From Patescibacteria group bacterium (lineage in GTDB: Bacteria > Patescibacteriota > Minisyncoccia > JACROR01), in assembly GCA_038065295.1 (NCBI GenBank), contig JBBTRG010000005.1:1-55545 (forward strand): a stretch of 55,545 nucleotides of DNA, in the 5' to 3' direction. The translations under genes were made by a program, and so were the position numbers. The notes under the pieces are model-generated. The model made no database searches. It was not told the origin of the DNA and saw nothing but the letters and a program-made list of their open reading frames with translations. Position 1 is the stretch's first letter; each line of letters starts with the position of its first letter. Shown here one piece after another: positions 1-41,173 of the stretch.

Positions 1-388
1 CGCCGCCACCTCCGCCGCTATCCATAACGCAAGCTGTGGATTTAGGAGATATAGTGGGGGTTACCTGTACGCCGTCTGACGGATTACTGATAGTAGTAAC
101 CGCATTTGAAGAAGTGCAAGTTGAAGTAATTTGCAAGGATCCCAACTGATCAACGGTCAACAACCTTCTATCCGAAGAGGTTATTTCAACGGTCTGCCCT
201 CCAGACAAGGTAACGGTAAAATCGCTGGTATTGACCGTTATGGAATCAATGTTAGCCGTGGTTCCTGACACGCTCAAATTAATGCCTCCCACGTTGATTA
301 AGACACCCGCCAACAAACTAAGCTCTGCGGCTAATACCGAAACAGGCAAAAGCAAGCTCAAGAAAATTGTTAAATAAATTTTCATCAT
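1..388 (-). CDS. secreted Thr/Ser/Gly-rich protein, N-terminal fragment (gene continues beyond window start)
   Basis: Absent from the ORF track because no stop lies in the window. My hand translation of the minus strand from ATG 388..386 gives MMKIYLTIFLSLLLPVSVLAAELSLLAGVLINVGGINLSVSGTTANIDSITVNTSDFTVTLSGGQTVEITSS... and stays open in frame to position 2. This is a signal peptide plus a T/S/G-rich mature part ending in a Gly run. Confidence 0.55.
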   Translation of the reverse strand, partial: MMKIYLTIFLSLLLPVSVLAAELSLLAGVLINVGGINLSVSGTTANIDSITVNTSDFTVTLSGGQTVEITSSDRRLLTVDQLGSLQITSTCTSSNAVTTISNPSDGVQVTPTISPKSTACVMDSGGGGG

Positions 389-416
389 ATTGTTTGTTAA
401 ATTTTCAAAAGCTAAA

Positions 417-1118
417 TTATCTTACTGCCCAGAAATTAAGGGTGCCGGCCGGAGTATTGTTGGCGCCAGTAAGATTTGATATTTCAACTCCAATTGTGTT
501 AACGGCCGTTGAAGATGCCGCGGTAATCGTAAATCCTCCCCAACCACCTGTAAGATGAGTTGCGAGAGAACTGGTGGCACTAACAAAAACCTTTTCACTG
601 CCTCTTATTCCGGTAGCTGATACACAAGAAGTGCCCGCGGTGCTGGAAGCATTAATAGATTTTTGAGTCAAATTACAAGTTCCAAAAATCATACCGGCAA
701 TTGTTCCATTGGTAGAATCCCCGCCGACAATCAATGCACCAGTGGTGCTGGCAATGCCAGTAACATAAAGATTATTACCCACAGTAAACGAATTCGTTGT
801 AGATGCATTTCCAGTAAGCGTAATTGCATCCGCGGCCCCATCACCCAGGGTAACATTGCCAAAGGCCGTAAATACTCCGGTCACCTGCAAAGTACTGGAG
901 GCTTGTAATCCGCTGGTAAACACGGCATTAAGTATAATAATGTCAGTTGCTGTGGCATTGCCAAGCGTCGTGTTGCCATTGATGGTCAACGTGCCATCGG
1001 TGCTAATATTCGTACTAATCGTAGTGGCCGCGTGCGTAAATAAAGCCACTAAAAGAAAAGACATCAAGCTCGCCATTACAATGCCCGACATTCTTTTCGT
1101 ATCTAAAAATCTTTGCAT
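417..1118 (-). CDS. secreted Thr/Asn/Gly/Ser-rich repeat protein (beta-solenoid-like surface protein), function unknown
   Basis: 233-aa ORF with an N-terminal signal peptide (SGIVMASLMSFLLVALFTHA then ATT). The mature part consists of degenerate repeats such as GTLTINGNTTLGNA, LQVTGVFTAFGNVTLGDG and ITLTGNASTTNSFTVGNNLYVTG. It has one Cys pair (CNLTQ...GTSC) and 10 N-x-S/T tripeptides counted by hand. Confidence 0.6.
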   Translation of the reverse strand: MQRFLDTKRMSGIVMASLMSFLLVALFTHAATTISTNISTDGTLTINGNTTLGNATATDIIILNAVFTSGLQASSTLQVTGVFTAFGNVTLGDGAADAITLTGNASTTNSFTVGNNLYVTGIASTTGALIVGGDSTNGTIAGMIFGTCNLTQKSINASSTAGTSCVSATGIRGSEKVFVSATSSLATHLTGGWGGFTITAASSTAVNTIGVEISNLTGANNTPAGTLNFWAVR

Positions 1119-1193
1119 AACTATTATATTTTACTAATTAATAATTTTTCTAAATAAATAATTAACATTATAAATCGACATTTATAATGCATT

Positions 1194-1221
1194 ATCATAA
1201 TTATAAAATACAATGTATCAA
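1194..1221 (-). promoter_or_regulatory. candidate sigma70-type promoter for the secreted-protein gene
   Basis: On the minus strand: TTGATA (1221..1216), a 16-nt spacer, then TATGAT (1199..1194). It lies downstream of the terminator of the preceding gene and about 75 nt upstream of ATG 1118. The region is AT-rich, so a chance match is possible. Confidence 0.25.
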
Positions 1222-1255
1222 TATGCCAAAAAGAGCTGTGGATAAGTAAGTGCGT

Positions 1256-1289
1256 GGAAATAAAAAGCATTGTCTTATTGGACAATGCT
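1256..1289 (-). terminator. Rho-independent terminator after the Wzy_C-TPR gene
   Basis: Perfect 9-bp stem (agcattgtc 1266..1274 / gacaatgct 1281..1289) with a 6-nt loop. On the minus strand it is followed by TTTTTATTT, and it starts 26 nt after the stop at 1315. Confidence 0.6.
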
Positions 1290-1314
1290 AAAGAATATCG
1301 CTAATTAAAACAAT

Positions 1315-3534
1315 CTATTGAATTTTGCCTGACTTAATATCATTTATAAGCCGTTCGCCCTCCTGCTTAAATTGTGGATCTATATCAACGGCCCTGGCAA
1401 GCGCCTCAATTGCCTTGGCGTAATCCTTTAATTGGACATAAGTTGCCGCCAAACTGACACGGTATTGGACATTGGACGGCTCGCTCTCAATCAACATGAG
1501 CCATGTATCCCTAACCCTGTCATACCTGCCTGCCAACGCATAAGCGGTGACCATTTGGGCATTCGGCAAGAGAATGGAGCCAAAAGTCCGCATTAAAATG
1601 GCGTCCGCTTCATCTTGTTTGCCATTCACTATGTTAAACATTGCAAACACCATAGCCGCCTGCTCAAAATTAGTATCCAAATCATAGGCGGTTTTCGCTG
1701 CCTCAAGAGCTTTTTCCGCATCCCCGGAAGATCGATAGATATCCGCGAGCAAAAAATAAATTTGCTGTTTACGGGGAGCGACCTCAAGCGCCTTATTTAA
1801 AAACGCTATCGCTTCCGCGGTCTTACCTCCACTACCGTAAAGAGATGCTAAAACAATGTAGGCCCTGGCATCATACGGGTTATCATTCACCTGATCACTA
1901 ACCTCCTCTATCGCCTTATTCAGAACACGCAATTTATTTTCGTTAGATAAACTGGACTTAACCACGTTGTTGGCATAACCGCTTAACTGCTCTCGAGCCT
2001 CACCATTGCCGAAAGTGCTATATGCAAAAACTTTATCAAAATCTTTCAAAATTAAATCCACATTGGATCCCTGCTGGTTTAAATCCCTCAAGGCATTCAA
2101 AAGCGCACGAGATGCCTGTATGGGCTTTGCATTGGCAAAATACATCACAACCGGCATACTAAATAAAACTAGGGTTGCCGCCATTACTTGCCAGAAAGCA
2201 ATTTTGCCTGCCTGTAATCTGCCATCAGCTTCCTCATGGTCAGTTGTCGCGTTATAAAAATGAATGAACCCCAAAAAAGTAAAAAATAAATAATAAGAAA
2301 CAAGATTGTCAAACACGAAAAGATTATGGAAAAAATAAGCAGCAAACATAGAAGTGAAAACCGCAGGAGCAAATACGCTGCCGACAACCGCTCTTTCTCG
2401 CGCATAACGCGCCCATAACATAGATAAGGCGGAGCCAAAAATGCTTAAATATGCAAGCAAGCCCAATACCCCTCCGGTAATCAGCCAGTCAAAAATTACA
2501 TTGTGCGAGCGATCAAACCACGGCTCCTGCCGCCACAACTTCGGATCATAATATTTATTGAAAACAATATTGTAATTCTCCGGACCCCAGCCAAGCAACG
2601 GACGCTCCTTAAATCCCTCCCACGACATCCCCCAAATAGTAAATCGCGACTCTACCGTGCGCTCATGAAGCGAGAGCCCGCTAAAACGCGACAGCACATA
2701 ATTACTTTTCACAAAATCGGTATCGCGCATGAGCCAAAAAGCTCCTCCCAAAAATGCTATGCCGGCAATAACGCCCATAGCCCCAAACTTCGCGCGCCTA
2801 TTTTGCGAAAAAATGCTTAATAAAAAAACTAACAAAATAATTCCACCGGCAAATCCCAAAATTGCCCCGCGCGTTGCTGTCAAAAAAATTACCGGCGCCT
2901 CAATGGCAAAAAGCGCGGCCCATAAAATTTTCCAGTAACGATTTTCCGCGCGCAAAAAAAGATAAATGGCCAAAAATGCCTGGAACATCATAAAAATCGC
3001 CATATAAGTAGCGTTGCCAAATGTGCCATCAACCCTCGGACCGCTTTGCTGGGAAATGGCAATCAGTCCCGCAAACTGGGCATAACCATATACCGCCATA
3101 GCGGCACCAGTTGCCGCCAAGCTATAAAACATTTTTTTCCAATCATCGATGCTTTTAAAAACGCTGATTAATACCAAAAAATAGGCAAACAAATGCAGAT
3201 GCCCCACCACGCCTTCCATCCTCTCGTAATTGGACCAAAAACTGCGATAAGGATTTTCACCGAACATGGCCGCCGCAGATAATATTAACACCGTAATGGC
3301 AACGGCATACAAAATGGGAGAAGTGGCAGGACGGTATTCGCGCTTAAAGATGGCTAAAATTATCCATAAGCCCAACAATATTTCCACAATGACTCGAAAT
3401 GCAAAATTCTTTCCCGTAATATACGGAAAAAACATAGTAGCGGAAACTATAAAAGCGATGAGCGGCAAAAACAAAAGCCCAACCTTGACTACATAACTTA
3501 AAATTTTTAAATAGGGTGCTGGCATTTTAATCAA
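1315..3534 (-). CDS. polytopic Wzy_C / O-antigen-ligase-like membrane protein fused to C-terminal TPR repeats
   Basis: 739 aa. The N-terminal ~460 aa contain many hydrophobic helices and a 'LTATRGAILGFAGG' segment typical of the O-antigen ligase/polymerase (Wzy_C) loop. The C-terminal ~250 aa are TPR-like (AYIVLASLYGSGGKTAEAIAFLNKALEVAP, YFLLADIYRSSGDAEKALEAAKTAYDLD, YRVSLAATYVQLKDYAKAIEALARAVDIDP). Confidence 0.75.
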   Translation of the reverse strand: MIKMPAPYLKILSYVVKVGLLFLPLIAFIVSATMFFPYITGKNFAFRVIVEILLGLWIILAIFKREYRPATSPILYAVAITVLILSAAAMFGENPYRSFWSNYERMEGVVGHLHLFAYFLVLISVFKSIDDWKKMFYSLAATGAAMAVYGYAQFAGLIAISQQSGPRVDGTFGNATYMAIFMMFQAFLAIYLFLRAENRYWKILWAALFAIEAPVIFLTATRGAILGFAGGIILLVFLLSIFSQNRRAKFGAMGVIAGIAFLGGAFWLMRDTDFVKSNYVLSRFSGLSLHERTVESRFTIWGMSWEGFKERPLLGWGPENYNIVFNKYYDPKLWRQEPWFDRSHNVIFDWLITGGVLGLLAYLSIFGSALSMLWARYARERAVVGSVFAPAVFTSMFAAYFFHNLFVFDNLVSYYLFFTFLGFIHFYNATTDHEEADGRLQAGKIAFWQVMAATLVLFSMPVVMYFANAKPIQASRALLNALRDLNQQGSNVDLILKDFDKVFAYSTFGNGEAREQLSGYANNVVKSSLSNENKLRVLNKAIEEVSDQVNDNPYDARAYIVLASLYGSGGKTAEAIAFLNKALEVAPRKQQIYFLLADIYRSSGDAEKALEAAKTAYDLDTNFEQAAMVFAMFNIVNGKQDEADAILMRTFGSILLPNAQMVTAYALAGRYDRVRDTWLMLIESEPSNVQYRVSLAATYVQLKDYAKAIEALARAVDIDPQFKQEGERLINDIKSGKIQ

Positions 3535-9136: not shown

Positions 9137-10426
9137 TTAAGCTTTGCATCTTAAAAATAAAAATTTTAAAGGCAATAAATGAATACGAAGCATGTTGAAT
9201 AGCGCAACGGCGCCAGAACTTGCCAAAAGTAACATCATAGGCATCACCGGAAGGCTATAGCGCCCTCCTTGGTTTAGGCCATTCGCAACCAATAAAAAAT
9301 TATTCCAAACAACAAAAACCAACAAAAATAATGCCGCTAATCGATATTCCTTTTTGCATAGTCCTACGGCCGCCAACGCGTAAAGAATCCACCAAAATTT
9401 CTGACCAATTTGAACCATCCACAACCCCAGCTTCGCACCGACTAGAGGTATTTTCATTCGCGTTACATCATTAATCAGATAATCATAACCATGGTAATTA
9501 AATGTTTTTACGACATAACCAAGATGAAATTTTAAATATTCCCAAGGATGCTCGGAAATGATTTTTAAAATATTACTCTTATAAAATGGGGTATTGATAA
9601 AGTCGTAACTAAAAACAATTTGGTTCTGTCCCGGATAATCCATTGGCATCGTAGGCCGTGGCAATATTAATTGATGTTGTTCGGTAAATTGCGCAAAAGT
9701 AAAAATGTAAAGATTCAACCAACCGGCACTAGATAATTCCCAAGTATTAAAAAGAATTTTGTTTCTTAAAGCCCAGGGCGAAAGAATTAACAAAAACAGT
9801 AAACAAAAGAGCAGCAACTGCTTCCAAACCACGCCAAAACTGCGATAATGCTGAAAAATAAAAGCCAGTAGAAACAGCGGAAAAAAATAAAGGCCTATCG
9901 GTCGAGTAAGAACGGCCAGTCCTAAAATAACAGCGAAGGAATACAATTTTCCGGCAATAAACAAATAGATGGCAAACAGTAACAAAAAACTGAACAAATT
10001 ATCAGACATCAATAAATTATTCCAATAAATTGAAACGGGCTCAAAAATAAATAAGAAAGCCGCAACAATCCCAACTGATCCGGATTTAAACAATATCTTG
10101 CCGATCCTATATATAAAGACGCCCGATAATCCGGCAAAAACATTCTGGACAATTACAATGCCCAATAAAGGAGTTTTCAGCCAAAGAAAAAAAGCAAGAA
10201 ACAGAGGGTAAAGCGGAGTACGAAGACTGTCCGGCACAAATGGTCCCTCAACCATCTGACTCATTACGCCATGGGTAAGCATATTGCCGGCTACCGTTAA
10301 AAAGGTTTCGGCATCAGAATAGGCAGTAAATGCCTGCGTTCCCAATAAAAATTGAATGATGAGCGCGTAGATAAAACGCACGCCAAAACCCAAACAAAAA
10401 ATCAATATTTCAATTTTATTCAACAT
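9137..10426 (-). CDS. GT-C fold membrane glycosyltransferase (ArnT/PMT-like)
   Basis: 429 aa with about 11 TM helices. The first loop carries an ArnT/PMT-like acidic motif (YSDAETFLTVAGNML). It sits directly downstream of a polyprenol-P GT2. Confidence 0.6.
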   Translation of the reverse strand: MLNKIEILIFCLGFGVRFIYALIIQFLLGTQAFTAYSDAETFLTVAGNMLTHGVMSQMVEGPFVPDSLRTPLYPLFLAFFLWLKTPLLGIVIVQNVFAGLSGVFIYRIGKILFKSGSVGIVAAFLFIFEPVSIYWNNLLMSDNLFSFLLLFAIYLFIAGKLYSFAVILGLAVLTRPIGLYFFPLFLLAFIFQHYRSFGVVWKQLLLFCLLFLLILSPWALRNKILFNTWELSSAGWLNLYIFTFAQFTEQHQLILPRPTMPMDYPGQNQIVFSYDFINTPFYKSNILKIISEHPWEYLKFHLGYVVKTFNYHGYDYLINDVTRMKIPLVGAKLGLWMVQIGQKFWWILYALAAVGLCKKEYRLAALFLLVFVVWNNFLLVANGLNQGGRYSLPVMPMMLLLASSGAVALFNMLRIHLLPLKFLFLRCKA

Positions 10427-10483: not shown

Positions 10484-11530
10484 TTATTTAATCAAATCCC
10501 AGGAAATAGGCGTGCCGCGTTCTATATCAGTGGCAGCCCTTTTACCCATAACTTCATCGTAGTGTTTTGGCGCCAAACCATGCCCAGGGCGGATGGAGCG
10601 CATATTTTTTTCGCTGAAAACTTCTCCTTTTTTAAGGTCTTGAACCACAAAAAGCGATTTTCTAAAAACAATATTTTCTAATTCGGCAAGCCCCGCGCCA
10701 TACTGCGAACACCCCAAAGCTCTTTCCGCCGCTCTCACTGCCTGCACCGTCAATTGAAATCCATGGGGCTCCAGCGAAAAAGCAGCGTCTGGTCCTCCAT
10801 CTTCAACTGACAAAATAATATGTTTTTCTATGATTTTCGCGCCCAAAGCCACGGCCATAACTGACGTGTTAGCGCCCAAAGAATGATCCGACAATCCCAC
10901 CACGGCTTTAAACCTTTCCGCCATATCGGCAATAGTAGCCAAATTCATATCCTCCGCCTTGGCGGGATAAGCGCTCACACAGTGAAGCAGAGCCACATTC
11001 GGACATCCGTTGTCTTTCAAGGTTTTGACGGCAAACTCAATATCTTCCACCGATGCCATACCACGCGACACAATCACCGGCTTTTTAGTCTGCCCTATTT
11101 TTTTCAAAAGCGGATAATCCACTATCTCAAAAGAGGCGATTTTATATACTCCCACTCTCATTTTTTCCAAAAAATCCACTGCCGTATTATCAAATGGCGT
11201 AGAAAAAAACATCAAACCCTTGGATTCCGCGTATTTTTTCAATTTCGGTTGCCAATCCCATGGCGTACAAGCTTTTTTGTAAAGCTCATAGAGCGTCTGC
11301 CCCGCCCACGCGTCATTCACCTTCACCTGAAAATATTTTTTGTCGGAATCAATGGTTATGGTATCCGGCGTGTAAGTTTGAAGCTTTATCGCGTCAGCGC
11401 CGGCATCCGCCGCCGCATCAATGATTTGCAAAGCTTTTTCATAAGAATGATTATGATTGCCGGACATCTCCGCCACGATAAAAACACGATGTCCCTCCCC
11501 TATTTTTCTGCCGCCGATATCAATTTCCAT
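10484..11530 (-). CDS. pseI: pseudaminic acid synthase (NeuB family with C-terminal SAF domain)
   Basis: VFIVAEMSGNHNHSYEKAL..AGADAIKLQTYTPDTITIDSDK, LYELYKKACTPWDW, GLSDHSLG, IIEKH and SIRPGHGLAPKHYDEVMGKRA closely follow the C. jejuni PseI pattern as I remember it. The longest ORF extends to 11629, but the conserved region begins at MEIDIGG (ATG 11530). Confidence 0.85.
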   Translation of the reverse strand: MEIDIGGRKIGEGHRVFIVAEMSGNHNHSYEKALQIIDAAADAGADAIKLQTYTPDTITIDSDKKYFQVKVNDAWAGQTLYELYKKACTPWDWQPKLKKYAESKGLMFFSTPFDNTAVDFLEKMRVGVYKIASFEIVDYPLLKKIGQTKKPVIVSRGMASVEDIEFAVKTLKDNGCPNVALLHCVSAYPAKAEDMNLATIADMAERFKAVVGLSDHSLGANTSVMAVALGAKIIEKHIILSVEDGGPDAAFSLEPHGFQLTVQAVRAAERALGCSQYGAGLAELENIVFRKSLFVVQDLKKGEVFSEKNMRSIRPGHGLAPKHYDEVMGKRAATDIERGTPISWDLIK

Positions 11531-11587
11531 AATAAAATAAATATAATTTATTGAAACATCAATGTCCACTGGGTATTTTGACATGAT

Positions 11588-11626
11588 AAAAAATAAAAAA
11601 AACCCCATCGTTCGTAAACAATGGGG
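11588..11626 (-). terminator. possible intra-operon terminator/attenuator between pseH and pseI
   Basis: On the minus strand: a CCCCAT/ATGGGG 6-bp stem (11626..11621 / 11608..11603) with a 12-nt loop, followed by TTTTTTTTTATTTTTT. It starts 8 nt after the pseH stop. Confidence 0.4.
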
Positions 11627-11633
11627 CAATGCT

Positions 11634-12113
11634 TTAACGCGACAACATCATGTCAGCGCAGGTCTGTCCTTTCTCCGTCTTATAACCAACAGACACATAT
11701 CCCGCGTTCGCAAAACTGCAAAGCGAAGCCATATTATTCGGCTTTATGAGCGCCGTGACACGCAAAACGGCGGGATACTCACTAAATATTTTGGCCGAAG
11801 CCAATCTTATAATTTCCGTGCCGTATCCTTTGCCGCGGAAAAAAGAGGTCAAAGCGATATTTATTTCCACTTCCTTGCTCTCTGTTAAATCATGACCATC
11901 CATGGAATCAAATCTCACTTGCGCCATGGGCCGGCCATCAATCTCAACAATCAAAATCAGACTATCCAACGCCATCAGCTTTTTTTCAAACCATTTTTTA
12001 TGCGTCGAGAAATCTATCGGCTTGGAATTAAATGACACCTTGCGCACCGCATCTTCATTACGAAGGTCAAATAGAAAACAAACATCAGGCCATTTGGCTT
12101 TTCTTATCAGCAA
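11634..12113 (-). CDS. pseH: GNAT N-acetyltransferase, PseH-like
   Basis: 159 aa. 'FLFDLRNEDAVRKVSFNSKPIDFSTHKKWF' matches the PseH-type 'wRN..vr......i....H..Wf' pattern. It has a GNAT core (FFRGKGYGTEII) and a TTG start overlapping the upstream gene by 29 nt. Confidence 0.6.
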   Translation of the reverse strand: MLIRKAKWPDVCFLFDLRNEDAVRKVSFNSKPIDFSTHKKWFEKKLMALDSLILIVEIDGRPMAQVRFDSMDGHDLTESKEVEINIALTSFFRGKGYGTEIIRLASAKIFSEYPAVLRVTALIKPNNMASLCSFANAGYVSVGYKTEKGQTCADMMLSR

Positions 12114-13497
12114 ACTTATACCCGCCTTTCTTTATATCTGCTACGCCTTGTTTTTCAAGCTGCAATCGTTTTTTCATTACCCTGCTTTTATACGCTTTTT
12201 TGATGGCGATCGCCCATTTTTGTCTGTCATGAGACAAGCAGATTTTTTCCGCGGACATTAACTTAAGCCGCCCCGCGAAAAACATTAAAGCAAGATGCGG
12301 CATCTTGTTCGCATAATATTCTATCATAGTTTTTATTCTTGGCAAATGATATTCATTGGAAATTATAATCGCTCTCCGCCACCTTCGCTTGGCGCAAATT
12401 TTATCCGATTCCAATAAATTTTCAAAAGTATTGCGCGAATTCTTTTCCTTAATAATTTTAATTCGCGGAACATGCAATGCCATAAGCTCTTTTTTCATAA
12501 TATCGGATACTGCCGGCGCGTCCGATATTTTACGCAGCGACCCACTGCCTCCTGAAACCAAAACTACCACACGCGGATTTTTTAAAGTAACCTCTTTATA
12601 CGAATGCGCTCCTGCGACTATCCGCAGCCTGTCGCCCAATCCTTTAAAATTTTTACCCTCGTTAAAATTGGTGGTGCGCCAGCCAGTTTTGCCGTCTTTT
12701 TTTAAAAAACCGCTTAAAATAATAATGGCATCTGCCTGGCCTACCGCTTCTTTAGCAAGAGATTTTTTAAGGCCTTCATTGCGTTCCAGATGTTTATTCA
12801 CGGCAAAAAGCCGCGGCAGTTTTTTCTTTAATTTCAAAATGTCTTTCAATGCAAATTGCCGATTTTTCTCATAAAGCGCCTTAAAAATTCCACTGATAAC
12901 GATCAAATCCTCCTTATTATCTAAAGTCAGGCGCATATCGGAAAGATCCCTTTCATTTTTTATATTTCCTACGCGGAAAATTTCCGGATGGTCACCCATA
13001 AATAAAGTTACATGTTCGCGTTCAGACGAAAGTTTAGTATCGCGCCAAGCCGTTTCAAGCGTTTTGAATGAAAACACTTCAATATCCATACCATCAGGAT
13101 AGGTCGGAGGCCGAACATTGCTCACATAATCAAACCTGCTTCTGTTCCTTTTATAAAAATTCACCACCCGGTCAACTATCGCGGGATCCATCAACGGACA
13201 ATCGCCTGTTATCCGCACAATATCATCCGCCCCAAACTTTTTTGCCGCTTGATAATAACGATCCAGCACATCGTTCTCCGATCCGCGAAAATAATCCAAC
13301 CCAAGTTTTTTCGCCATCATAACCAATGGCTCGTCTGCTTGTAGATTAGTAGTGGCAATAATTATTTTATCCAAAAACTTCGCGCGCCGCAGCCGTTCAA
13401 TCAAATATTCAAGCATGGTTTTGCCCATCACTTTTTTCAAAATCTTTCCGGGCAAGCGCGTTGACCCCGTGCGAGCTTGTATAATAGCGGCAATCAT
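12085..13497 (-). CDS. SpsF/PseF-like cytidylyltransferase fused to a DUF218 (YdcF/SanA/ElyC-like) domain
   Basis: The N-terminal ~245 aa, MIAAIIQARTGSTRLPGKILKKVMGKTMLEYLIERL...ITGDCPLMDP, are a CTP_transf_3/SpsF-type domain. The C-terminal ~200 aa show the DUF218 pattern: AIIILSGF..., VVVLVSGGSG, NTFENL, AIIISNEYHLPR. Confidence 0.7.
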   Translation of the reverse strand: MIAAIIQARTGSTRLPGKILKKVMGKTMLEYLIERLRRAKFLDKIIIATTNLQADEPLVMMAKKLGLDYFRGSENDVLDRYYQAAKKFGADDIVRITGDCPLMDPAIVDRVVNFYKRNRSRFDYVSNVRPPTYPDGMDIEVFSFKTLETAWRDTKLSSEREHVTLFMGDHPEIFRVGNIKNERDLSDMRLTLDNKEDLIVISGIFKALYEKNRQFALKDILKLKKKLPRLFAVNKHLERNEGLKKSLAKEAVGQADAIIILSGFLKKDGKTGWRTTNFNEGKNFKGLGDRLRIVAGAHSYKEVTLKNPRVVVLVSGGSGSLRKISDAPAVSDIMKKELMALHVPRIKIIKEKNSRNTFENLLESDKICAKRRWRRAIIISNEYHLPRIKTMIEYYANKMPHLALMFFAGRLKLMSAEKICLSHDRQKWAIAIKKAYKSRVMKKRLQLEKQGVADIKKGGYKFADKKSQMA

Positions 13498-14838: not shown

Positions 14839-15788
14839 ACTCTTCGTGGCGCAGAAGCCTTAAGCAAAATTTCAATAATCCTCTTTCCGTCATTTAAATC
14901 CTGTAAGGGTTTTTGTCTTTGTTCAACGCATTCAAAAAAATGCTTAATCTCATCAACAAACATTTTATTGGAATCTCCATCGCCCCTATACAAAACTTTG
15001 CTTTTACTTTCATTTTCAAATTTTACCAAATCATCCATAAAATCAATCGTAAGCGTTCCCTTGTCTGTAACAGCATCAATGCTTTGTGCCCGTTTTCTGC
15101 TTACATAATCCAAGGCAACGGTACTTAACACACCACGCTTATGTTCAAACACCATGGCGGCAGATTCTTCGCTCTTAATCCCAAGCGACGATATTTTACT
15201 ACGATATATAAAACCATTTTTAATATCTCCAAATAAGGCAACCAAACAATTCATTATATGCGAACCGGAATCCAGCACTAGCGTTTCGTTTCTATATTTT
15301 TTTTGCGCGGCATATATATATTTACGATGCACCGGAATGGAATATCCCATCACAAAACGGGACAAAAGCGGCTTGCCATATAAATCGCTTTTCAAAATAC
15401 GCAATAATGCTATCAATCCTTTATGAAAAAGATAGTTACATGCGACCATAGCTACAAGCTTATTTTTCTTGCATAATTTTTGCAATTCATTAATGTGCGC
15501 CACACTACAAGAAAGAGGTTTTTCTATAAAAAGATGGCAGCCCGCTTTGGCGCATTGAAGTGCCGTTTTAATGTGCGCGCTGCTTGGGCTACAAATAAAC
15601 GCAACGTCAAATTGCGCAAGATTTTTATGTTTTATATCCGGTACTGTTTTTATATCTTTGCCAACGATTCTTTTTTTATCAATGTCGTAAACATAGACAT
15701 CTTTAAAACCAAGCTGGCATAAATTTTTATAATGCCGTCGGCCAATGGATCCAAAACCTATAATGATTATTTTGTGTTTTTTATTCAT
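14835..15788 (-). CDS. Gfo/Idh/MocA family NAD(P) oxidoreductase
   Basis: KIIIIGFGSIGRRHYKNL Rossmann motif and the FIEKPLS motif. It has 4-nt and 8-nt overlaps with its neighbours. Confidence 0.75.
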   Translation of the reverse strand: MNKKHKIIIIGFGSIGRRHYKNLCQLGFKDVYVYDIDKKRIVGKDIKTVPDIKHKNLAQFDVAFICSPSSAHIKTALQCAKAGCHLFIEKPLSCSVAHINELQKLCKKNKLVAMVACNYLFHKGLIALLRILKSDLYGKPLLSRFVMGYSIPVHRKYIYAAQKKYRNETLVLDSGSHIMNCLVALFGDIKNGFIYRSKISSLGIKSEESAAMVFEHKRGVLSTVALDYVSRKRAQSIDAVTDKGTLTIDFMDDLVKFENESKSKVLYRGDGDSNKMFVDEIKHFFECVEQRQKPLQDLNDGKRIIEILLKASAPRRV

Positions 15789-16866
15789 TTTCTACGCGCT
15801 CCAAATTATCACCGTACTTCTTTATTCTTGAATCATATGTGCCCAAAAAATAATCTTTATCATAATATTTTTCTCCCATAAATAACGGAATGGAGATTCC
15901 GCCAAAACCGCGTTTAAATTGAGAAATGTACTTTTCTTTGTCACTCGGAAAATTCTGTAGCGTGTCAGAATAATATTGCCAGCCTATCTCATAGAATTTA
16001 ATGCCTTGCTTACACATCCATTGAATAGCCTCCCACTGGATAAAATGAGCAATAGGAAGATTCCCCGCCTTTGAATCATTACACGCGGAACCATAATACA
16101 CATTATTCTTAAATATAAAAAAATAGGAAAATCCGATAAATTTATTTTCTTTTTGAGCCCCGATCAAAAAAGCGTCTCCATCTTTTATCCAGTCGTACAT
16201 CATATCAAATGTGATGCTTTTCCTCTTGGCTCTTCCGGGATCTTTATGGTGTAAATCCGTATATTTATCAAAAACTTCTCTAGTGATATTGGAACAGTCA
16301 AATACTGCCGCTGTTAATATTTTTGATGCCTTATCAATGTCAGAATCATGACCGTGCCTTACGCCTCTCCGCAATTCATCCACAGAACGCCTTAGATCTA
16401 AAATCTGCGTATTTAAAGACGCGTCAATAAAGCCGAATTGCATCAAAAAATTAAATGGCTGTTCGCGCGCCTCCACAAGAGACGGATTTAAAACAGCGCC
16501 TCTTAGCATGACACGCTTTACATTATTCTGCTTTGCAAGACAATCTATATACTTAAATATTTCTTTGAGAACGGCCTTTCGCTCGTTGCGTGTTAAATGA
16601 TTGGCTAATGCCGGAACAGGCCCGTAATAATGATTATACGAAAACTCCATAGCGCCATTGTTGTTTTCTAAAATTAACGGACAAATCGCCGCCATTTTAC
16701 CGTCCTTAAGCAAGAAAAATGATCGTGATTCGGACTGATTATTCACTTGAAAATTAAGCGTGTATTCAAGCCATTTGGAAGTATGCCAAAACCACGCGTC
16801 ATCACTTTCTAGACAAAATGCATCCCATTCTTTATACTTTTCTTGCGTGAGTTTAACGATTTCCAT
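15781..16866 (-). CDS. FemABX-like (GNAT-fold, aminoacyl-transferase-type) protein
   Basis: Starts MEIVKLTQEKYKEWDAFC...WFWHTSKWLEY. The C-terminal 'YISQFKRGFGG' resembles the FemABX hallmark 'FK.GFGG'. The longest ORF runs to 16950 inside pseC, but ATG 16866 sits 2 nt after the pseC stop. Confidence 0.6.
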   Translation of the reverse strand: MEIVKLTQEKYKEWDAFCLESDDAWFWHTSKWLEYTLNFQVNNQSESRSFFLLKDGKMAAICPLILENNNGAMEFSYNHYYGPVPALANHLTRNERKAVLKEIFKYIDCLAKQNNVKRVMLRGAVLNPSLVEAREQPFNFLMQFGFIDASLNTQILDLRRSVDELRRGVRHGHDSDIDKASKILTAAVFDCSNITREVFDKYTDLHHKDPGRAKRKSITFDMMYDWIKDGDAFLIGAQKENKFIGFSYFFIFKNNVYYGSACNDSKAGNLPIAHFIQWEAIQWMCKQGIKFYEIGWQYYSDTLQNFPSDKEKYISQFKRGFGGISIPLFMGEKYYDKDYFLGTYDSRIKKYGDNLERVENE

Positions 16867-16868
16867 AT

Positions 16869-17972
16869 TCAAAAAAAATCCACGATAAGACGCGCGATTT
16901 TCCTTATATCGGATTTTGCCAGCTTCGTATGGCACGGCAACGTGATACAAGAATTATGATATTCGTCCATATTTTTTAATTGAATATTTTTATAACCGTG
17001 CTTTCTATAATAAGGATGCGAATATACTGCGGGATAATGAAAATTAACTCCTATGCCATTTTTTAAAAGATATCTGTAAAGTGGCCATCTCATCTTGGGA
17101 TCTTTCACTCGTATCACATAAATATGCCATCCGTGATAACACTGCGGTAATTCTTTAGGCAACATAATCTCATTCGTCTCGCGCAATAGATTGCCATACC
17201 AGGAAACCACCGCGCGCCTTTTTTCAATAAACCGGTCCAGCTTCTTCAACTGACTTTTGCCCAAAGCCGCCTGCATATCCGTCATTCTGTAATTATAACC
17301 GAGCTCGGTCATAACATTTTGTCCGTTATCATCCTTATGAATCCCGTGGCTTCGCAGAGATATTAACTTTTCGTAAAATCTTTTATCGTTGGTCACGATG
17401 GCTCCACCTTCTCCAGTTGTCATGGACTTTACCGGATGGAAGCTAAACACAGCCGCATTTGAATACCGGCAACTTCCAATCTTGAATTTTTTATAACTCG
17501 CGCCCAGCGCGTGGCACGCGTCTTCAATAACAAACAATTTGCGCTTTTGGGCAACTTTCCATACGACCTCCATTTCGCATGGATGCCCCGCAAAATGAAC
17601 CGGAATAATTGCTCTAGTTTTGCGGGTAACCAATTTTTCTATTTCTGCTTCATCAATATTAAAAGTATCGCTTCTAATATCGCAAAAAACCGGGCGCGCG
17701 CCAACAGCTAACAACATATTGCTTGTCGCAACAAAGGTATTGGGAGTGGTAATCACATCATCTCCTCCCTTTAATCCCGCGGCGAGATAAGCAAGATGCA
17801 GTCCAGCCGTTCCATTGGAAACCGCCACGGCATATTTCACGCCACAGTAACTGGCAAGCGCTTTTTCAAAAGATGCTATCGCCGGCCCTTGAGTCAGCCA
17901 ATCGGAGCGCAAGACATCGACAACCGCCCCAATATCATCTTTGTCGATAGACTGGCGCCCATAAGGAATCAT
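16869..17972 (-). CDS. pseC: UDP-4-amino-4,6-dideoxy-N-acetyl-beta-L-altrosamine transaminase (DegT family)
   Basis: MIPYGRQSIDKDDIGAVVDVLRSDWLTQGPAIASFEKALASYCGVKYAVAVSNGTAGLH is the classical PseC N-terminus. The PLP Lys lies in SFHPVKSMTTGEGG. Confidence 0.85.
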   Translation of the reverse strand: MIPYGRQSIDKDDIGAVVDVLRSDWLTQGPAIASFEKALASYCGVKYAVAVSNGTAGLHLAYLAAGLKGGDDVITTPNTFVATSNMLLAVGARPVFCDIRSDTFNIDEAEIEKLVTRKTRAIIPVHFAGHPCEMEVVWKVAQKRKLFVIEDACHALGASYKKFKIGSCRYSNAAVFSFHPVKSMTTGEGGAIVTNDKRFYEKLISLRSHGIHKDDNGQNVMTELGYNYRMTDMQAALGKSQLKKLDRFIEKRRAVVSWYGNLLRETNEIMLPKELPQCYHGWHIYVIRVKDPKMRWPLYRYLLKNGIGVNFHYPAVYSHPYYRKHGYKNIQLKNMDEYHNSCITLPCHTKLAKSDIRKIARLIVDFF

Positions 17973-22516: not shown

Positions 22517-24304
22517 TCACTTTTTAATATTCTGAGTCTTAAAAAAATATGACTCTTTGTCCTGCATAAGTTCACCGGGTGCGCCCTCCTCAATAATCTT
22601 ACCGCCATCCAATACATACAACTTGTCGGATGCCATTATCGTAGAAAGGCGATGGGCAATGACTATCACGGTCGTCTTACTTTTAAGCTCTTTGATGGAT
22701 TTTTGTATCAAAACTTCGGATTCATTATCTAAAGCCGAAGTGGCTTCGTCAAGAATAAGAATTTGCGGCTTTCTTGCCAGCGCCCTTGCCAAAACAATAC
22801 GCTGTCGCTGTCCGCCGGAAAGCCGCACGCCGCGCTCTCCGACTACCGTATTAAAGCCATTTGGCTGTTTTGCAATAAAATCATAAATATTGGCTAATCT
22901 AGCGGCCGCCTCAATGTCTTCATCGCTTAACGAGTCATCATAAAACCTGATATTGCTAGAAATAGTGTCATTAATCAAAAATATATCCTGCGACACATAA
23001 CCGACATTACGCCTCCACTCACCCAAGCTAAAATCCGTGACATTGGTTCCGTCTACTAATATGGAGCCGGCCTGCGGCCGTAACAAACGCAAAATAAGAT
23101 CAACTATCGTGGTTTTGCCAGCACCAGAAGGCCCAATCAATCCTATCATCGCGCCCTTCTTTATAGAAAAGGACACGTCCGACAACACCCGAGCGTCATC
23201 TTGGTAAGCAAAACTTATATTCTTTAACTCAAGAATATGATTGAAATTAAATTTTTTAATACCGGAATCTTTTTCCTGGTGCCTGATGATTTCTTTTTCA
23301 TAATCCAGCACGCTTATCAGGTGCGGGACCTGCGTAATCATTTTATGTACCTGCGTTTGTGATAATTGTATATTTACAAATACCCGATTAATCATGTACA
23401 CAATCACCGCAAACGAAGCGAAACTAAACGCGTTTGTTTTATAAAAAAAGGCGAATATACCGATTATAAAAAAAAGTCCGACAGGCTGCAGAACCGCGTT
23501 GGTAAAATTCTCCAACATGGCCACCTTAATGTTTAGATTTCTCATATTATCAAAATACAAAAGACCCTTTTGCAGAGCTTGATGCTCAACAAACATGGAT
23601 TTAATGGTTTTTATTCCGATAATATTTTCATTGACATAGTGCGCCAAAAGCTTATATTTCTGTACAAATTCCCTTGAAATAATTCTGTTTTTATAAAACA
23701 AAGGCTTAAAAAGCAAAAGGAGGAGTCCGCCCAAGACAAGCGCCAGCACGGCAATGATAAATGATATATTAATGGCTATTAAGCTATAAACAATGAGATT
23801 CACCACTATCAAAATAGCGCCTCCAATATAAAAAAGAAGGGCGGAACTATTATTGACATGCGTGGTCAAGATTTGATCAAGGTGGCCGATTTTTTGTCTA
23901 GATAAATACGGCCAATCTGCCGCGAATGTTGATTGCAACAATCTTCTCCTGGTGTTTCTTTCATAATCGGCCTTGATTCTGACGGAAAGATATTGAGTAA
24001 TAAATAATGCGATGGCCTTAAAAATGAACAGCAAGACCATAAAAATAAGCAAGAACTTGACTGTGTAACTCAAATGAAAATAAGAAAAAAAATGCTGTAT
24101 GGTCTTAGAAATCGCATCGTCGGCGTCACTGCCGGCAATAAGGGAAAACATCGGAATAACGGCATTAATGCCAATGCCCTCTAAAACGCCGCTCACAAAA
24201 CTTAAAACGGCCATTCCAATAATCTGCCCTTTATATTGTCCGAAGGCTTGCCGGAATAATTTTAAAACGGTCAATATTTTATTGTCCTTGAGGTTGAAAA
24301 TCAC
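22517..24304 (-). CDS. fused TMD-NBD ABC exporter (MsbA/PglK-like lipid-linked glycan flippase type)
   Basis: 595 aa with a six-helix N-terminal domain, Walker A GPSGAGKTT, signature LSGGQRQR and Walker B ILILDEATSALD. Confidence 0.9.
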   Translation of the reverse strand: MIFNLKDNKILTVLKLFRQAFGQYKGQIIGMAVLSFVSGVLEGIGINAVIPMFSLIAGSDADDAISKTIQHFFSYFHLSYTVKFLLIFMVLLFIFKAIALFITQYLSVRIKADYERNTRRRLLQSTFAADWPYLSRQKIGHLDQILTTHVNNSSALLFYIGGAILIVVNLIVYSLIAINISFIIAVLALVLGGLLLLLFKPLFYKNRIISREFVQKYKLLAHYVNENIIGIKTIKSMFVEHQALQKGLLYFDNMRNLNIKVAMLENFTNAVLQPVGLFFIIGIFAFFYKTNAFSFASFAVIVYMINRVFVNIQLSQTQVHKMITQVPHLISVLDYEKEIIRHQEKDSGIKKFNFNHILELKNISFAYQDDARVLSDVSFSIKKGAMIGLIGPSGAGKTTIVDLILRLLRPQAGSILVDGTNVTDFSLGEWRRNVGYVSQDIFLINDTISSNIRFYDDSLSDEDIEAAARLANIYDFIAKQPNGFNTVVGERGVRLSGGQRQRIVLARALARKPQILILDEATSALDNESEVLIQKSIKELKSKTTVIVIAHRLSTIMASDKLYVLDGGKIIEEGAPGELMQDKESYFFKTQNIKK

Positions 24305-25139: not shown

Positions 25140-25520
25140 TTATATTTCTGCCAACATGGTGCTCGCCAAATTGTAGTCTCCATCAAGAGTTAAAGATTTT
25201 TGAAAACATTCTCTGGCTTCCGCCTTCTTACCTACGTCCAGCAAAATTAATCCTAAATTGTAATGATAATGCGAAAATGAGCCGTCCAAAGCTATCGCGC
25301 GCCTCAATGATTTTTCCGCCGCGGCAAAATCGCCAAAATGATACTGAATCAAGCCGCTTAAATGTGGTGCCATAGAACAGCGCGGATTATTTACATAAAT
25401 TTTACGATAAATTATCTCTGCCGATTGAAAATTACCTGCCTTATGATATTCCAAAGCCCGCGACAATGCCTCGCTCTCGCTCAACAATTCTTGTCCGATT
25501 TTAATATGATTATCCGTCAT
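25140..25520 (-). CDS. small TPR-repeat protein
   Basis: 126 aa with three TPR-like units (ALEYHKAGNFQSAEIIYRKI, GLIQYHFGDFAAAEKSLRRAIALD, YNLGLILLDVGKKAEARECFQKSLTLD). It has an ATGA overlap with neuA. Confidence 0.75.
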   Translation of the reverse strand: MTDNHIKIGQELLSESEALSRALEYHKAGNFQSAEIIYRKIYVNNPRCSMAPHLSGLIQYHFGDFAAAEKSLRRAIALDGSFSHYHYNLGLILLDVGKKAEARECFQKSLTLDGDYNLASTMLAEI

Positions 25521-26233
25521 GTCTTCTTAAATTTCTGCAAATAAAACTCAACTAATTCTAAATCGGCCGGCTCGTTGATGTCAACGGATCTCTCCGTGGG
25601 CATCATATACGGTCTGGAAATCTGACCAAATAAATCACCCCGCGTAATTAAATCTGTCTTTGTGATAAATACGGCGCCATTCCGTCTGTATGCTTTGTCC
25701 AAAAATTGCCTCGGGGTTGATTGTCTACCCTCTCTATCGCCATCGTCAAACGGCACAATCACGTCATTTTCTATTCTTTTTATTTTCTCCAACGCAAAAT
25801 TCTCCAACAAAACCATGCTCATAACCGAATCGGCATCGGTATCAATAATTTTTTGTATACACGCGTCAATATCTTGTGCCGTTCGCAATGGTGATGTCGG
25901 CTGTAAAATCATTAAATAATCGTACTCTTCTCCTTGATTTTCCTTCAGCCAATTAAGCGCGTGCTGAACAACAGCCATAGACGCGCTTCTGTCTTGAGCC
26001 AGCTCCGCTGGCCTTAAAAACGGCACGTCCGCGCCATATTTTTTGGAAATCTCTACGATCTCTTGATCATCGGTTGAAACAATACATCTAGTCAAAAAAC
26101 GGCTGGCCAATGCCGCCTCTATCGTATAGGCAATCAAGGGCTTGCCTTCCAAAAGTTTTATATTCTTGCCCGGAATGCCTTTTGATCCGCCTCGTGCCGT
26201 AATAACCCCCAAGATTTTCTTATTTATATACAT
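25517..26233 (-). CDS. neuA: acylneuraminate (nonulosonate) cytidylyltransferase
   Basis: GVITARGGSKGIPGKNIKLLEGKPLIAYTIEAA and ILQPTSPLR are the CMP-NulO synthetase signature. The protein is 238 aa. Confidence 0.85.
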   Translation of the reverse strand: MYINKKILGVITARGGSKGIPGKNIKLLEGKPLIAYTIEAALASRFLTRCIVSTDDQEIVEISKKYGADVPFLRPAELAQDRSASMAVVQHALNWLKENQGEEYDYLMILQPTSPLRTAQDIDACIQKIIDTDADSVMSMVLLENFALEKIKRIENDVIVPFDDGDREGRQSTPRQFLDKAYRRNGAVFITKTDLITRGDLFGQISRPYMMPTERSVDINEPADLELVEFYLQKFKKT

Positions 26234-26255
26234 AATAATCTATGCGCTATTTCAT

Positions 26256-27089
26256 TTATCTCCCCAAGCAAAAACGCAATTGTGCTGCGTTAATTTTGCC
26301 AAGCGGCTCCTCGATTAACTCAAAAGTATGAATATCCTCCTTCGCAAAGTAGTGGTACCGCCACGTTCTTTGCAGGTTATTTTTTAAGAAACGCGCGTTG
26401 GCTGCGCGGCCATCCACTACTATCAAAGTTCCGGGTAGTAAAAACGGCTCAAAAAGTAAAATATCCGCGGACATTGGCAAACGATCCGGCGATCTGGTGG
26501 AAATGCCACGCACATCATTCTTAACGGCAAATTGATCCGGACCGTCTAAATATATTAAATCGGGGCAAATGTTTGGCAATTTTTTATACATAGTGCACGC
26601 TCTTCCGTTAAATGTTGTCATCTCTACTTCCGACTGATGAAAATAAACGAAATCCAATAATGCGGGCGGGAACCCCTGTTTGCACCTGTCAATCCATTTT
26701 TTACCGCTATCAATGGAATGCACTTCAAAAGGATTAGCCCTCCTTAAGTTATTTGCGATACCCCCCCCAAACTCTTCTTTATTTTTCTTCAAGGCGTCAG
26801 CAAAAACTACGGTGCTTTTCCCCACACCAAATTCCAAAATAGTAGTAACCCTTCTAGTTCTTGCCAAAAAATGCAACCTAATTAAGTCATCCAGCTCTGC
26901 CGGAAAAGAAACGCTATTCTCCGGATTAACGCTTCCATAGAGACTCTTTTTTATCTTTTTCTCAACATTGCCATAAATCCCCATATCTATGCCAAATAGA
27001 TCATTGATCTTGTTGTCCGTGCACCATTCGCGGTAATTTAGATTCTTTTTAGTGTGCCGATCCTTAAACATTATTATATTTAATGCCAC
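26256..27089 (-). CDS. class I methyltransferase-fold protein (O-methyltransferase-like)
   Basis: ILEFGVGKST (motif I), DLIYLDGPD and GTLIVVDG resemble Methyltransf_24/CCoAOMT-type layouts. The gene sits between neuC and neuA and contains the G8 tract. Confidence 0.5.
   Translation of the reverse strand: MALNIIMFKDRHTKKNLNYREWCTDNKINDLFGIDMGIYGNVEKKIKKSLYGSVNPENSVSFPAELDDLIRLHFLARTRRVTTILEFGVGKSTVVFADALKKNKEEFGGGIANNLRRANPFEVHSIDSGKKWIDRCKQGFPPALLDFVYFHQSEVEMTTFNGRACTMYKKLPNICPDLIYLDGPDQFAVKNDVRGISTRSPDRLPMSADILLFEPFLLPGTLIVVDGRAANARFLKNNLQRTWRYHYFAKEDIHTFELIEEPLGKINAAQLRFCLGR
26761..26768 (-). repeat. G8 homopolymer (C8 on plus strand) inside the methyltransferase-like gene
   Basis: Read directly: ...gcgata CCCCCCCC aaactc... 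It encodes the GGG of EEFGGGIANN at about codon 107. Confidence 0.95.
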
Positions 27090-28233
27090 GATAATCCTGA
27101 AACCTTTTCTGCGTATAAAGTTTAGTTTTTGCCAAAACTTGCGCTATTTTTCTGCCCGTGCCCGGCTGAAAATACATATTGCTTAGCTGGTATTTCCCAT
27201 GCTTCAGCTGGCGCTCTATCGCCCGCTTGATGCTATTTTTAGCATAATTCGTATCCACTACATTTTCCGCGTGCATCCGGCCATTTTGCCGTGATCCGAT
27301 ATTAACCACGGGGACACCAAAATAGGAACACTCCTTGATGCCAGCCGATGAATTGCCAATAAGGCAAAGGGATTTTTTTAATAATCCTAAAAACTCTTCC
27401 GGCGGTAAATGCTTAATAAAATATATATTTTTGGGATTATTTTTCTCTCTGAAAATCCTTATTCCTTTGGAAATCTCGTCCGTTCCAGCATCAATATTCG
27501 GCCACAACCAAATAGTCGGAATCTGCAGTTCGTGAACCGCTTGCAAAGTTTTTGTTACATTCTCGCGGTTTTTGTCTATCTCGGAAGTAACGGGATGCTG
27601 CATTGCCATCAAATACGGCTTATTGATATCTATTACGCTGCCAACGCCTCTGATGGATGCTCCGGAAACTCCGTATCTTCCTTTGGCGATAAGTTCAAGC
27701 CCGGGACATCCGAAATTAAAAACATAGTTCGGCTTCTCCCCCATTCTTATTATTCTATCCTTGGATTGTTTATTGGTTGCAAAGTGGATATGCGCCAGTT
27801 TGGTAACGGCATGGCGCACGCTCTCGTCAATATTGCCGGTTACATCACCGCCCTCCAAATGCGCTATGGGAATATTTAAATAAGCGGCGGCAACGGCGGC
27901 AGATAAAATTTCATAGCGATCGCCTCGCACCACCACAACATCCGGCTCCAAGTTGGAAAAAGCGGTGGCAAATTCCGTCACTCCTATTCCGGTCGTCTTG
28001 GCCATGGCCAAAGGATCGCCCCCCTCAAAAGCCGTTGCAATCTTAAAGTTATAATTAAAGCCGTCATTTTTTAATGACGACACCACATCGCCATATTTTG
28101 GCAACAATGCGGAAGCGCCGATTATGATCTGCAACTCGACGTCTTTGCGTCGCTTAAGCTCACCCAGTATAAGTTTACTGCGCGCGTAGTGATTTCTAGA
28201 TGTGATTATAAAACAAATTTTTCTCTTGTTCAT
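27064..28233 (-). CDS. neuC: UDP-N-acetylglucosamine 2-epimerase (hydrolysing), NeuC type
   Basis: KICFIITSRNHYARSKLILGELKRR, VVVRGDRYE, AHLEGGDVTG, HFATN; 389 aa. Confidence 0.85.
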   Translation of the reverse strand: MNKRKICFIITSRNHYARSKLILGELKRRKDVELQIIIGASALLPKYGDVVSSLKNDGFNYNFKIATAFEGGDPLAMAKTTGIGVTEFATAFSNLEPDVVVVRGDRYEILSAAVAAAYLNIPIAHLEGGDVTGNIDESVRHAVTKLAHIHFATNKQSKDRIIRMGEKPNYVFNFGCPGLELIAKGRYGVSGASIRGVGSVIDINKPYLMAMQHPVTSEIDKNRENVTKTLQAVHELQIPTIWLWPNIDAGTDEISKGIRIFREKNNPKNIYFIKHLPPEEFLGLLKKSLCLIGNSSAGIKECSYFGVPVVNIGSRQNGRMHAENVVDTNYAKNSIKRAIERQLKHGKYQLSNMYFQPGTGRKIAQVLAKTKLYTQKRFQDYRGIKYNNV

Positions 28234-28246
28234 TCCGCCCTAAATA

Positions 28247-41096: not shown

Positions 41097-41173
41097 CCTC
41101 CTTTATGTATTTAGTTGTAAAATAGCTTTCTTAACTTATCACCATAAAAGCACAAAAGCTAAATTTTATCAAT

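Follow-up and report, generated by a model that had tools for sequence, protein, structure and literature searches.

The contig JBBTRG010000005.1 (assembly GCA_038065295.1, a Patescibacteria group bacterium), of which positions 1 to 55,545 are called the window here, carries near one end a gene that raises a simple question: onto what does its product transfer glycans? The gene (1315..3534, minus strand) encodes a fusion of a Wzy_C membrane domain with a C-terminal TPR domain. Downstream of it, on the same strand, lie two genes for secreted proteins, gene A (417..1118) and gene B (first 129 codons, 1..388, the gene being cut by the contig end), and upstream of it stretches one long, mostly co-directional region for glycan synthesis. 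The original prediction held that the fusion is the terminal transferase that loads the glycans of this island onto the neighboring surface proteins. As described below, the best single explanation is indeed that the fusion is a protein O-oligosaccharyltransferase, a reading that we hold tentatively, at somewhat less than an even chance. Architecture, fold, catalytic residues, taxon and linkage are observed; topology, donor, acceptor and mechanism are predicted from sequence and gene context.

In the list of open reading frames (ORFs), the fusion gene starts at a TTG codon (position 3534) and encodes the 739 residues reported originally. The public gene call gives a likelier start, an ATG at 3525, for a protein of 736 residues whose stop codon lies at 1315..1317. 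Residue numbers used here are those of the 736-residue protein, and adding 3 yields the numbering of the 739-residue ORF. The fusion belongs to the Wzy_C superfamily (PF04932): residues 210-363 of the 739-residue ORF match the Pfam model with E=7.8e-22 and 78.1 bits, above the curated cut-off of 31.7, and the membrane part alone matches with E=4.8e-22 (residues 207-360, 2446..2907). Numerous Pfam TPR models match at residues ~540-725 (739-residue numbering), and the ligase loop motif noticed earlier, TATRGAILGFAGG, is found in the protein. The AlphaFold2 model, for which 50 homologues were aligned, has high confidence (predicted local distance difference test [pLDDT] 89.9, predicted template modeling score [pTM] 0.84). 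It consists of 12 membrane helices (residues 1-433, 2227..3525) with a large loop (residues 267-342) bearing the catalytic residues, a low-confidence loop at 434-443, a long 13th helix at 444-485, and 14 TPR-type helices over residues 489-732. The 13th membrane helix proper occupies residues 444-466 (2128..2196), in agreement with a hydrophobic segment at 445-463 in the 739-residue numbering, and the TPR domain follows at residues 467-736 (1318..2127); all of these coordinates are on the minus strand. The architecture claimed at the outset has thus been borne out both by the profile matches and by the model.

The fold of the membrane part is that of WaaL. In a Foldseek search of solved structures, it superposes on WaaL (7TPG_B) with a template modeling (TM) score of 0.70 over 446 columns, WaaL being the sole membrane-domain fold match among the matches listed, and the C-terminal tail has its matches, in Foldseek and the PDB, among consensus TPR proteins and in the O-GlcNAc transferase (OGT) TPR domain. 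When the full-length fusion is compared with PDB sequences, only TPR proteins are found; WaaL surfaced once the membrane part was searched alone, and the profile of that part matches only 7TPG/7TPJ across the PDB. Furthermore, a profile alignment (hhalign) with the E. coli K-12 WaaL sequence, taken from NC_000913.3, places R219, R294, and H341 of the fusion opposite R215, R288, and H338 of WaaL. The codons of the three residues have been checked (2869..2871, 2644..2646, and 2503..2505, respectively, minus strand), and all three are invariant among the 50 homologues. In WaaL, these are the essential residues, and they are kept in PglL as R224, R298, and H349 (PMC3643930). The fusion therefore has the Arg-Arg-His set of the WaaL/PglL type. 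Several of its outer loops, among them FFPxITGKNF, NPYRSFWSNYERMEG, and EPWFDRSHN, hardly vary across these 50 sequences either, and the run H341-N-x9-G352-xx-G355 presumably fits the motif described for WaaL ligases.

These residues imply that a glycan is transferred from undecaprenyl diphosphate to a hydroxyl at the outer face of the membrane, a chemistry established for WaaL and PglL (PMC3643930). A 2022 paper on the structure of WaaL reportedly describes such outer-face transfer from undecaprenyl diphosphate to a hydroxyl. The hydrophobic segments and loop charges of the fusion agree with the topology of WaaL, in which the N- and C-terminus are both cytoplasmic. Since the fusion adds a 13th helix to this topology, its TPR domain is predicted, by homology, to face the outside, on the same side as the active site.

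Given this likeness, the fusion might be thought to be a true WaaL, which attaches O-antigen to lipid A-core. Such an assignment would account for the fold and the catalytic residues, and it is what the public names of the relatives ("O-antigen ligase family protein" or similar) suggest. It nevertheless appears extremely unlikely. All homologues bearing names in the protein search, like all of the listed genome records, are patescibacterial, no lpx or waa (lipid A) genes were seen among the genes of the 55-kb window, lpxC and kdsA are missing from a curated Parcubacteria genome (PMC5220378), and neither the extra helix nor the TPR domain is present in WaaL. The host is a patescibacterium of the candidate phyla radiation (CPR) type, as had been supposed; the nearest homologues come from Candidatus Niyogibacteria (65% identity), followed by Giovannonibacteria (~50%) and Pacebacteria (46%). 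From the expected lack of lipid A it had been argued that the enzyme should modify protein. The premise is supported by the Parcubacteria genome without lipid A genes, and Patescibacteria are reported to be without lipopolysaccharide, but the argument "no lipid A, so protein transferase" is invalid, because one monoderm Wzy_C enzyme, TacL, has a glycolipid as its acceptor (PMC5727136). The earlier reasoning had overlooked this TacL-type alternative.

The fusion family is large. A protein search returns at least 4,000 matches at E<=1e-5, and the best 120 of them have an identical domain set and lengths of ~690-825 residues (with one 635-residue fragment). A scan using one genome per species gives at least 592 confirmed loci; all 80 of the listed species loci are patescibacterial and include Kaiser-, Lloyd-, Taylor-, Yonath-, Vogel-, Campbell-, and Yanofskybacteria, among others. 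Given these species genomes and the existing annotation, the family is therefore widespread, annotated, and yet uncharacterized. No paper treating this Wzy_C-TPR family in Patescibacteria was found, in a literature coverage that is incomplete and so does not prove absence. What is already known is the kind of enzyme, Wzy_C ligases and O-oligosaccharyltransferases, the TPR-bearing form included. What is new is the near-ubiquity of the fusion in one patescibacterial group and a family-less pair of surface proteins, A and B, as its candidate partners.

Between the fusion gene and gene A, the terminator and possible promoter seen in the original prediction are both present. The former is an intrinsic-terminator-like hairpin of 9 pairs followed by the T-run TTTTTATTT (1266..1289, minus strand; -14.9 kcal/mol, z=-4.9, with 0 of 200 shuffled sequences folding as well), and the latter is a promoter-like site, TTGGCA-18 nt-TATAAT (1200..1229, minus strand), which agrees with the consensus at 11 of 12 positions, on the consensus match alone. 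Gene A encodes 233 residues with a signal peptide at residues ~1-31, according to the ORF list and the family alignment, and 28 bases separate it from gene B; a signal-peptide-like segment stands at the N-terminus of both A and the B fragment. Thr, Ser, Asn, and Gly together account for 48% of the residues in A and for 43% of those in the B fragment versus a mean of 21% (standard deviation 2%, maximum 27%) in the other 46 proteins of the window. This enrichment, too, had been pointed out earlier, and it is far beyond chance.

The mature N-terminus of A, ATTISTNISTDGTL in the window protein, is conserved, the pattern ATTISTNIxTGGTLxVTG being nearly invariant in the family alignment. The middle region is rich in Thr, Ser, Gly, and Asn and varies among homologues from almost nothing to more than 300 residues, and it is followed by a conserved C-terminal domain with two invariant Cys residues. 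In a model with a pLDDT of 82, the C-terminal domain is a beta-sandwich, and residues 33-140 lack regular structure. The family has 249 members in a word-index search and 1,534 representatives at E<=1e-3 in an exhaustive profile search; in Giovannonibacteria, the N-terminal motif is retained on a different C-terminal domain. No relative of A was found by sequence in Pfam, NCBIfam, or the PDB, and the best Foldseek match (E=0.25), to the C-terminal domains of phage tailspikes, is not significant, nor is any other. Homology of A to TasA/AbpA or to pilins has been rejected because there is no significant fold, PDB, Pfam, or NCBIfam match. For TasA/AbpA in particular, Peptidase_M73 (PF12389) does not match at E<=10. 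As for pilins, A has an ordinary signal peptide rather than a prepilin leader, the Gly is absent in some homologues, and the Glu at +5 is present in none. A contains 10 N-x-S/T sites in its 233 residues, and its mature part holds only 11 charged residues. N-glycosylation of A was considered and rejected: no PglB/STT3 was seen, and the N-x-S/T count is largely an effect of composition.

Full-length orthologues of B consist of a signal peptide, an N-terminal domain with two Cys residues, poly-Gly, one or two PG_binding_1 domains, and a Pro/Ala-rich tail. The contig ends within a GGC/GGA/GGT run (window 1-20) that codes for the poly-Gly of B, and this low-complexity repeat is the probable reason why the assembly stopped there. 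Position 1 of the window is likewise where an 87-kb contig of assembly GCA_964364825.1 ends. B directly follows A in nearly all loci whose downstream sequence is long enough, and the few exceptions are short or divergent.

Do A and B stay with the fusion in other genomes? The order fusion-A-B recurs in the nearest relative (L004), in other Patescibacteria (L006, L007), and at L008 and L010/L011, L008 being a complete 651-kb Giovannonibacteria genome. A search begun from distant A homologues found it again at L095, where the fusion is 36% identical, and found A-B-x-fusion at L094, where the fusion is a paralogue with only 23% identity. Other orders are A-B-fusion (L027), A-B-glycosyltransferase-phosphoglycosyltransferase-fusion (L030), and A-B, GT2, GT-C, fusion (L112). 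In a neighbor-joining tree of the fusion proteins, linkage to A and B is found in many deep branches and is missing from one large clade, where secA lies within 3 kb of the fusion in 14 of the 23 loci read by eye. Because three loci (L027, L030, and L056) hold both A/B and secA near the fusion, it is possible that the ancestral order was A-B-fusion-(murB)-secA.

Other A-B pairs have a different setting. Those without the fusion are preceded by a large PG_binding_1 protein, in some cases accompanied by a small protein made up only of TPR, and are followed by rplJ-rplL. In Kaiserbacteria the two are unlinked: secA neighbors the fusion (L062, L088), and A-B has rplJL nearby (L126-L128). A 732-residue neighbor of A-B in L093 was considered as a fusion homologue and rejected, since it is not a Wzy_C protein. 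A very large secreted protein (~1,150-1,250 residues) is encoded just upstream of A-B in numerous lineages, as in L093 (2283-5822), L094 (3350-6787), L103, L106, and L112, and in the first four of these loci it has a PG_binding_1 domain. The block between ftsK and rplJ-rplL in L093 and L094 suggests a conserved surface-protein locus.

The fusion also keeps company with the genes that begin a glycan on its lipid carrier. An initiating phosphoglycosyltransferase of the Bac_transf type lies within the flanks of 15 of the 80 listed species loci, directly divergent from the fusion in 7, and is present as well at L004, L008, L010, and L095. At L022, the fusion is followed by an epimerase, an initiating enzyme, a glycosyltransferase, and another epimerase, and neither A nor B is present. 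From one genome to the next, the glycan genes around the fusion are entirely different, but the fusion itself is conserved. The fusion is, in sum, linked to lipid-carrier glycan assembly and, facultatively, to A-B.

A protein acceptor is rated most likely because of a precedent, because the genes for this class of enzyme often adjoin those of their targets, and because A-B stays near the fusion through rearrangements. The precedent is WsfB of Paenibacillus alvei, a predicted S-layer protein O-oligosaccharyltransferase with Wzy_C and a C-terminal TPR domain; WsaB is a TPR-less relative of it with a TPR-only neighbor, WsaA (PMC2943079). As for gene neighborhood, 21 of 31 pglL genes adjoin their pilin targets (PMC3643930). 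The strong promoter-like site that A has of its own and its extreme Thr/Ser content have been counted as further support.

Several results weigh against this assignment. The PglL-specific model PglL_A (PF15864), named as flanking Wzy_C in PglL (PMC3643930; Schulz et al. 2013), does not match the membrane part of the fusion even at E<=10. In the large clade mentioned above, murB and/or secA follow the fusion, and neither A nor B is found within 6 kb. Many A-B pairs, in turn, have no fusion within ~7-8 kb. The conserved synteny that had been named as a test consequently holds in part: the trio recurs in relatives in several orders, but the large murB/secA clade and many A-B pairs are unlinked. 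The conservation of the outer loops would equally suit a conserved acceptor that is not a protein, and TPR domains are described, in a reference cited in PMC2943079, as also serving polysaccharide export scaffolds. No initiating phosphoglycosyltransferase was found among the window ORFs scanned. In relatives, the initiating transferase genes lie beyond B, and they are missing here because the contig stops inside B. RNA runs covering the region were looked for, and none was found. Finally, the window contains other candidate terminal transferases, a PMT_2-type GT-C protein and two family-less polytopic proteins; thus, the fusion is one of several possible last-step enzymes for the island sugars.

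Some of these results would be expected of a TacL-type glycolipid ligase. Such an enzyme would move a lipid-carrier-linked glycan onto a membrane glycolipid, giving a lipoglycan or a lipoteichoic-acid-like polymer, and the TPR arm would dock envelope machinery or peptidoglycan-bound proteins such as B. TacL itself is a monoderm Wzy_C protein needed to attach teichoic acid to glycolipid (PMC5727136). In addition, the Arg-Arg-His residues likewise serve lipid-acceptor ligases. The spread of the fusion over at least 592 species genomes, together with its invariant outer loops, would suit an acceptor that is small and conserved, and the murB/secA context of the large clade with neither A nor B also fits a glycolipid ligase. 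However, TacL (397 residues) and E. coli WaaL (419 residues) are too short to hold a 265-residue TPR domain, and the sole cited Wzy_C enzyme with a C-terminal TPR domain is a predicted protein transferase. Furthermore, the repeated A-B linkage in shuffled orders would then need another explanation. We therefore regard the glycolipid ligase as a serious but rather doubtful alternative to a protein acceptor.

The murB genes, together with the PG_binding_1 proteins that adjoin the fusion gene, could also point to a ligase whose acceptor for a secondary cell-wall glycopolymer would be peptidoglycan itself or a layer of proteins bound to it. No precedent for this was found, and wall polymers are known to be attached by LCP phosphotransferases rather than by WaaL-type enzymes (discussed also in PMC5727136); the proposal seems very unlikely.

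The sugars that the fusion might transfer would be made by the island. On the minus strand are two separate routes to nonulosonic acids (10484-14838 and 25517-29338), with two NeuB genes (10484..11629 and 28247..29338), two CMP-transferases (12085..13497 and 25517..26233), and a UDP-GlcNAc 2-epimerase (27064..28233), accompanied by aminotransferases and an acetyltransferase. A FemAB-family protein stands amid these genes (15781..16950, minus strand; NCBIfam E=2e-24) and may add an amino acid to a sugar. The island also contains a dTDP-sugar route with a C-methyltransferase, several methyltransferases and GT2 enzymes, and a nucleotide-sugar route for heptose (39923-42194 and 45826-46497, minus strand) made up of a SIS isomerase, a HAD phosphatase, a GHMP kinase, and a nucleotidyltransferase. 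We take the layout of this route to be the GDP-heptose type of Gram-positive S-layer glycans and not the ADP-heptose type of lipopolysaccharide. Two B12-binding radical SAM enzymes (19173-20873, plus strand, and 44245-45771, minus strand) may be sugar C-methyltransferases, and an MsbA/PglK-like ABC exporter (22517..24304) could be a flippase. A TPR-only ORF of 126 residues lies within the island as well (25140..25520, minus strand).

The other candidate terminal transferases are found here too. A second candidate set for surface glycosylation (47617-51333, minus strand) comprises a GT2 enzyme (50383..51333), a GtrA-like protein (47617..48303), and the PMT_2-type GT-C protein of 587 residues (48314..50077); it is a candidate for the usual trio that passes a sugar from polyprenyl phosphate to an extracellular protein or polymer. 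The two polytopic proteins without a Pfam family, one of 429 residues with ~9-11 hydrophobic segments (9137..10426, minus strand) and one of 607 residues with ~9 (35667..37490, minus strand), are candidate polymerases, flippases, or GT-C enzymes; the former has a weak NCBIfam match to "cell surface glycopolymer formation protein."

Such a setting, a large glycan island with initiating transferases and flippases nearby, would also fit a Wzy-type polymerase or polymerase/ligase, which joins repeat units on the lipid carrier and for which the TPR arm would be a scaffold or a chain-length partner. Pfam Wzy_C covers O-antigen polymerases as well, and the best PDB match was named by its depositors "putative cell surface polysaccharide polymerase/ligase." Yet the complete WaaL/PglL set of Arg-Arg-His is invariant in the fusion, and the protein at 9137..10426 could be the polymerase instead. 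Moreover, a polymerase is disfavored because an enzyme specific for a repeat unit would be expected to vary with the changing glycan genes, and the fusion is conserved although these genes differ completely from genome to genome. A polymerase is thus judged unlikely, and it, the wall-polymer ligase, and the true WaaL are all less likely than a protein acceptor or a TacL-type ligase.

If the fusion is a protein O-oligosaccharyltransferase, the following model can be proposed. In this model, a glycan would be begun on the lipid carrier by a phosphoglycosyltransferase, extended with sugars made by the island, and flipped, for example by the MsbA/PglK-like exporter. The fusion, as a WaaL-fold glycan transferase whose active site and TPR arm both lie on the outer face of the cytoplasmic membrane, would then take the undecaprenyl-diphosphate-linked glycan as donor and pass it, en bloc, to the hydroxyl groups of Ser and Thr residues in secreted surface proteins. 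Binding of the diphosphate would fall to the conserved arginines and activation of the acceptor to the conserved histidine, with the TPR arm gripping the protein. Among candidate acceptors A comes first, perhaps through the conserved N-terminal stretch close to the membrane, and B would anchor the assembly to peptidoglycan. A bolder version, which we think doubtful as a whole, joins A and B with the fusion into the core module for surface glycoproteins in Niyogi-, Giovannoni-, Kaiser-, and Lloydbacteria and their relatives. The TPR arm would seize the A strand ATTISTN..GGTL at the Sec exit and load it with lineage-specific glycans, A would represent a new fiber- or S-layer-like family, and B would pin it to peptidoglycan.

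The CPR envelope is the interface by which these tiny cells probably attach to their hosts. It has been described as still unclear (PMC5220378). An O-oligosaccharyltransferase would give a handle on surface decoration in Patescibacteria, would offer A-B as specific candidate substrates open to testing in E. coli with no need to culture the organisms, and would possibly be a new enzyme for glycoengineering. If the module reading were true, these uncultured episymbionts would have their first defined system for protein O-glycosylation as well as their first major envelope protein to be identified. A glycolipid ligase would instead mean lipoglycans in organisms reported without genes for fatty acid and isoprenoid synthesis (PMC5220378).

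How does this locus compare with known systems? For A and B alone, there is an analogy with TasA/TapA and with archaeal AbpA/AbpB: a major secreted subunit, whose signal peptide is directly followed by a conserved strand and whose body is a beta-sandwich, and an anchoring partner encoded by the next gene. The donor strand of AbpA is itself glycosylated, but neither TasA nor AbpA is homologous to A. For the fusion, WaaL (Cupriavidus metallidurans, 7TPG/7TPJ; E. coli K-12) is alone among solved structures in being related to it by sequence (E=3.7e-9), and it shares the 12-helix core, the large outer loop, and the aligned catalytic R, R, and H. It differs in having only ~17-20% identity to the fusion, in lacking TPR, and in using a lipid A-core acceptor that is not expected in this host. 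TacL (RafX) of Streptococcus pneumoniae, likened here by its description, is also a Wzy_C enzyme of a monoderm envelope that works on a lipid-carrier-linked polymer; however, it is 397 residues long, lacks TPR, and uses a glycolipid acceptor, whereas the fusion, at 736 residues, is not of the ~400-residue TacL type.

PglL (Neisseria) and PilO/TfpO (Pseudomonas, Acinetobacter) come closer to the proposed role. They have Wzy_C and the R/R/H residues, their genes often adjoin the target gene, and they move a lipid-linked glycan en bloc at the outer face of the membrane. In contrast, the fusion lacks PglL_A (PF15864) and adds a 13th helix and a 265-residue TPR domain, its neighbors are not pilins, and the hosts of PglL and PilO are diderm. 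The closest likeness in described domains is to WsfB and to WsaB/WsaA of Geobacillus stearothermophilus. WsfB has a Wzy_C membrane domain and a C-terminal TPR domain, the architecture found in the fusion (as defined in PMC2943079), and it works in a monoderm host; the WsfB and WsaB genes lie in or beside a surface-glycan locus, near a gene for a secreted surface protein. Even WsaA has possible counterparts in the small TPR-only genes that flank A-B in L093 and L094 and in the one within the window (25140..25520). The difference is that the candidate acceptors A and B belong to new families rather than to known S-layer proteins, and that the host is patescibacterial.

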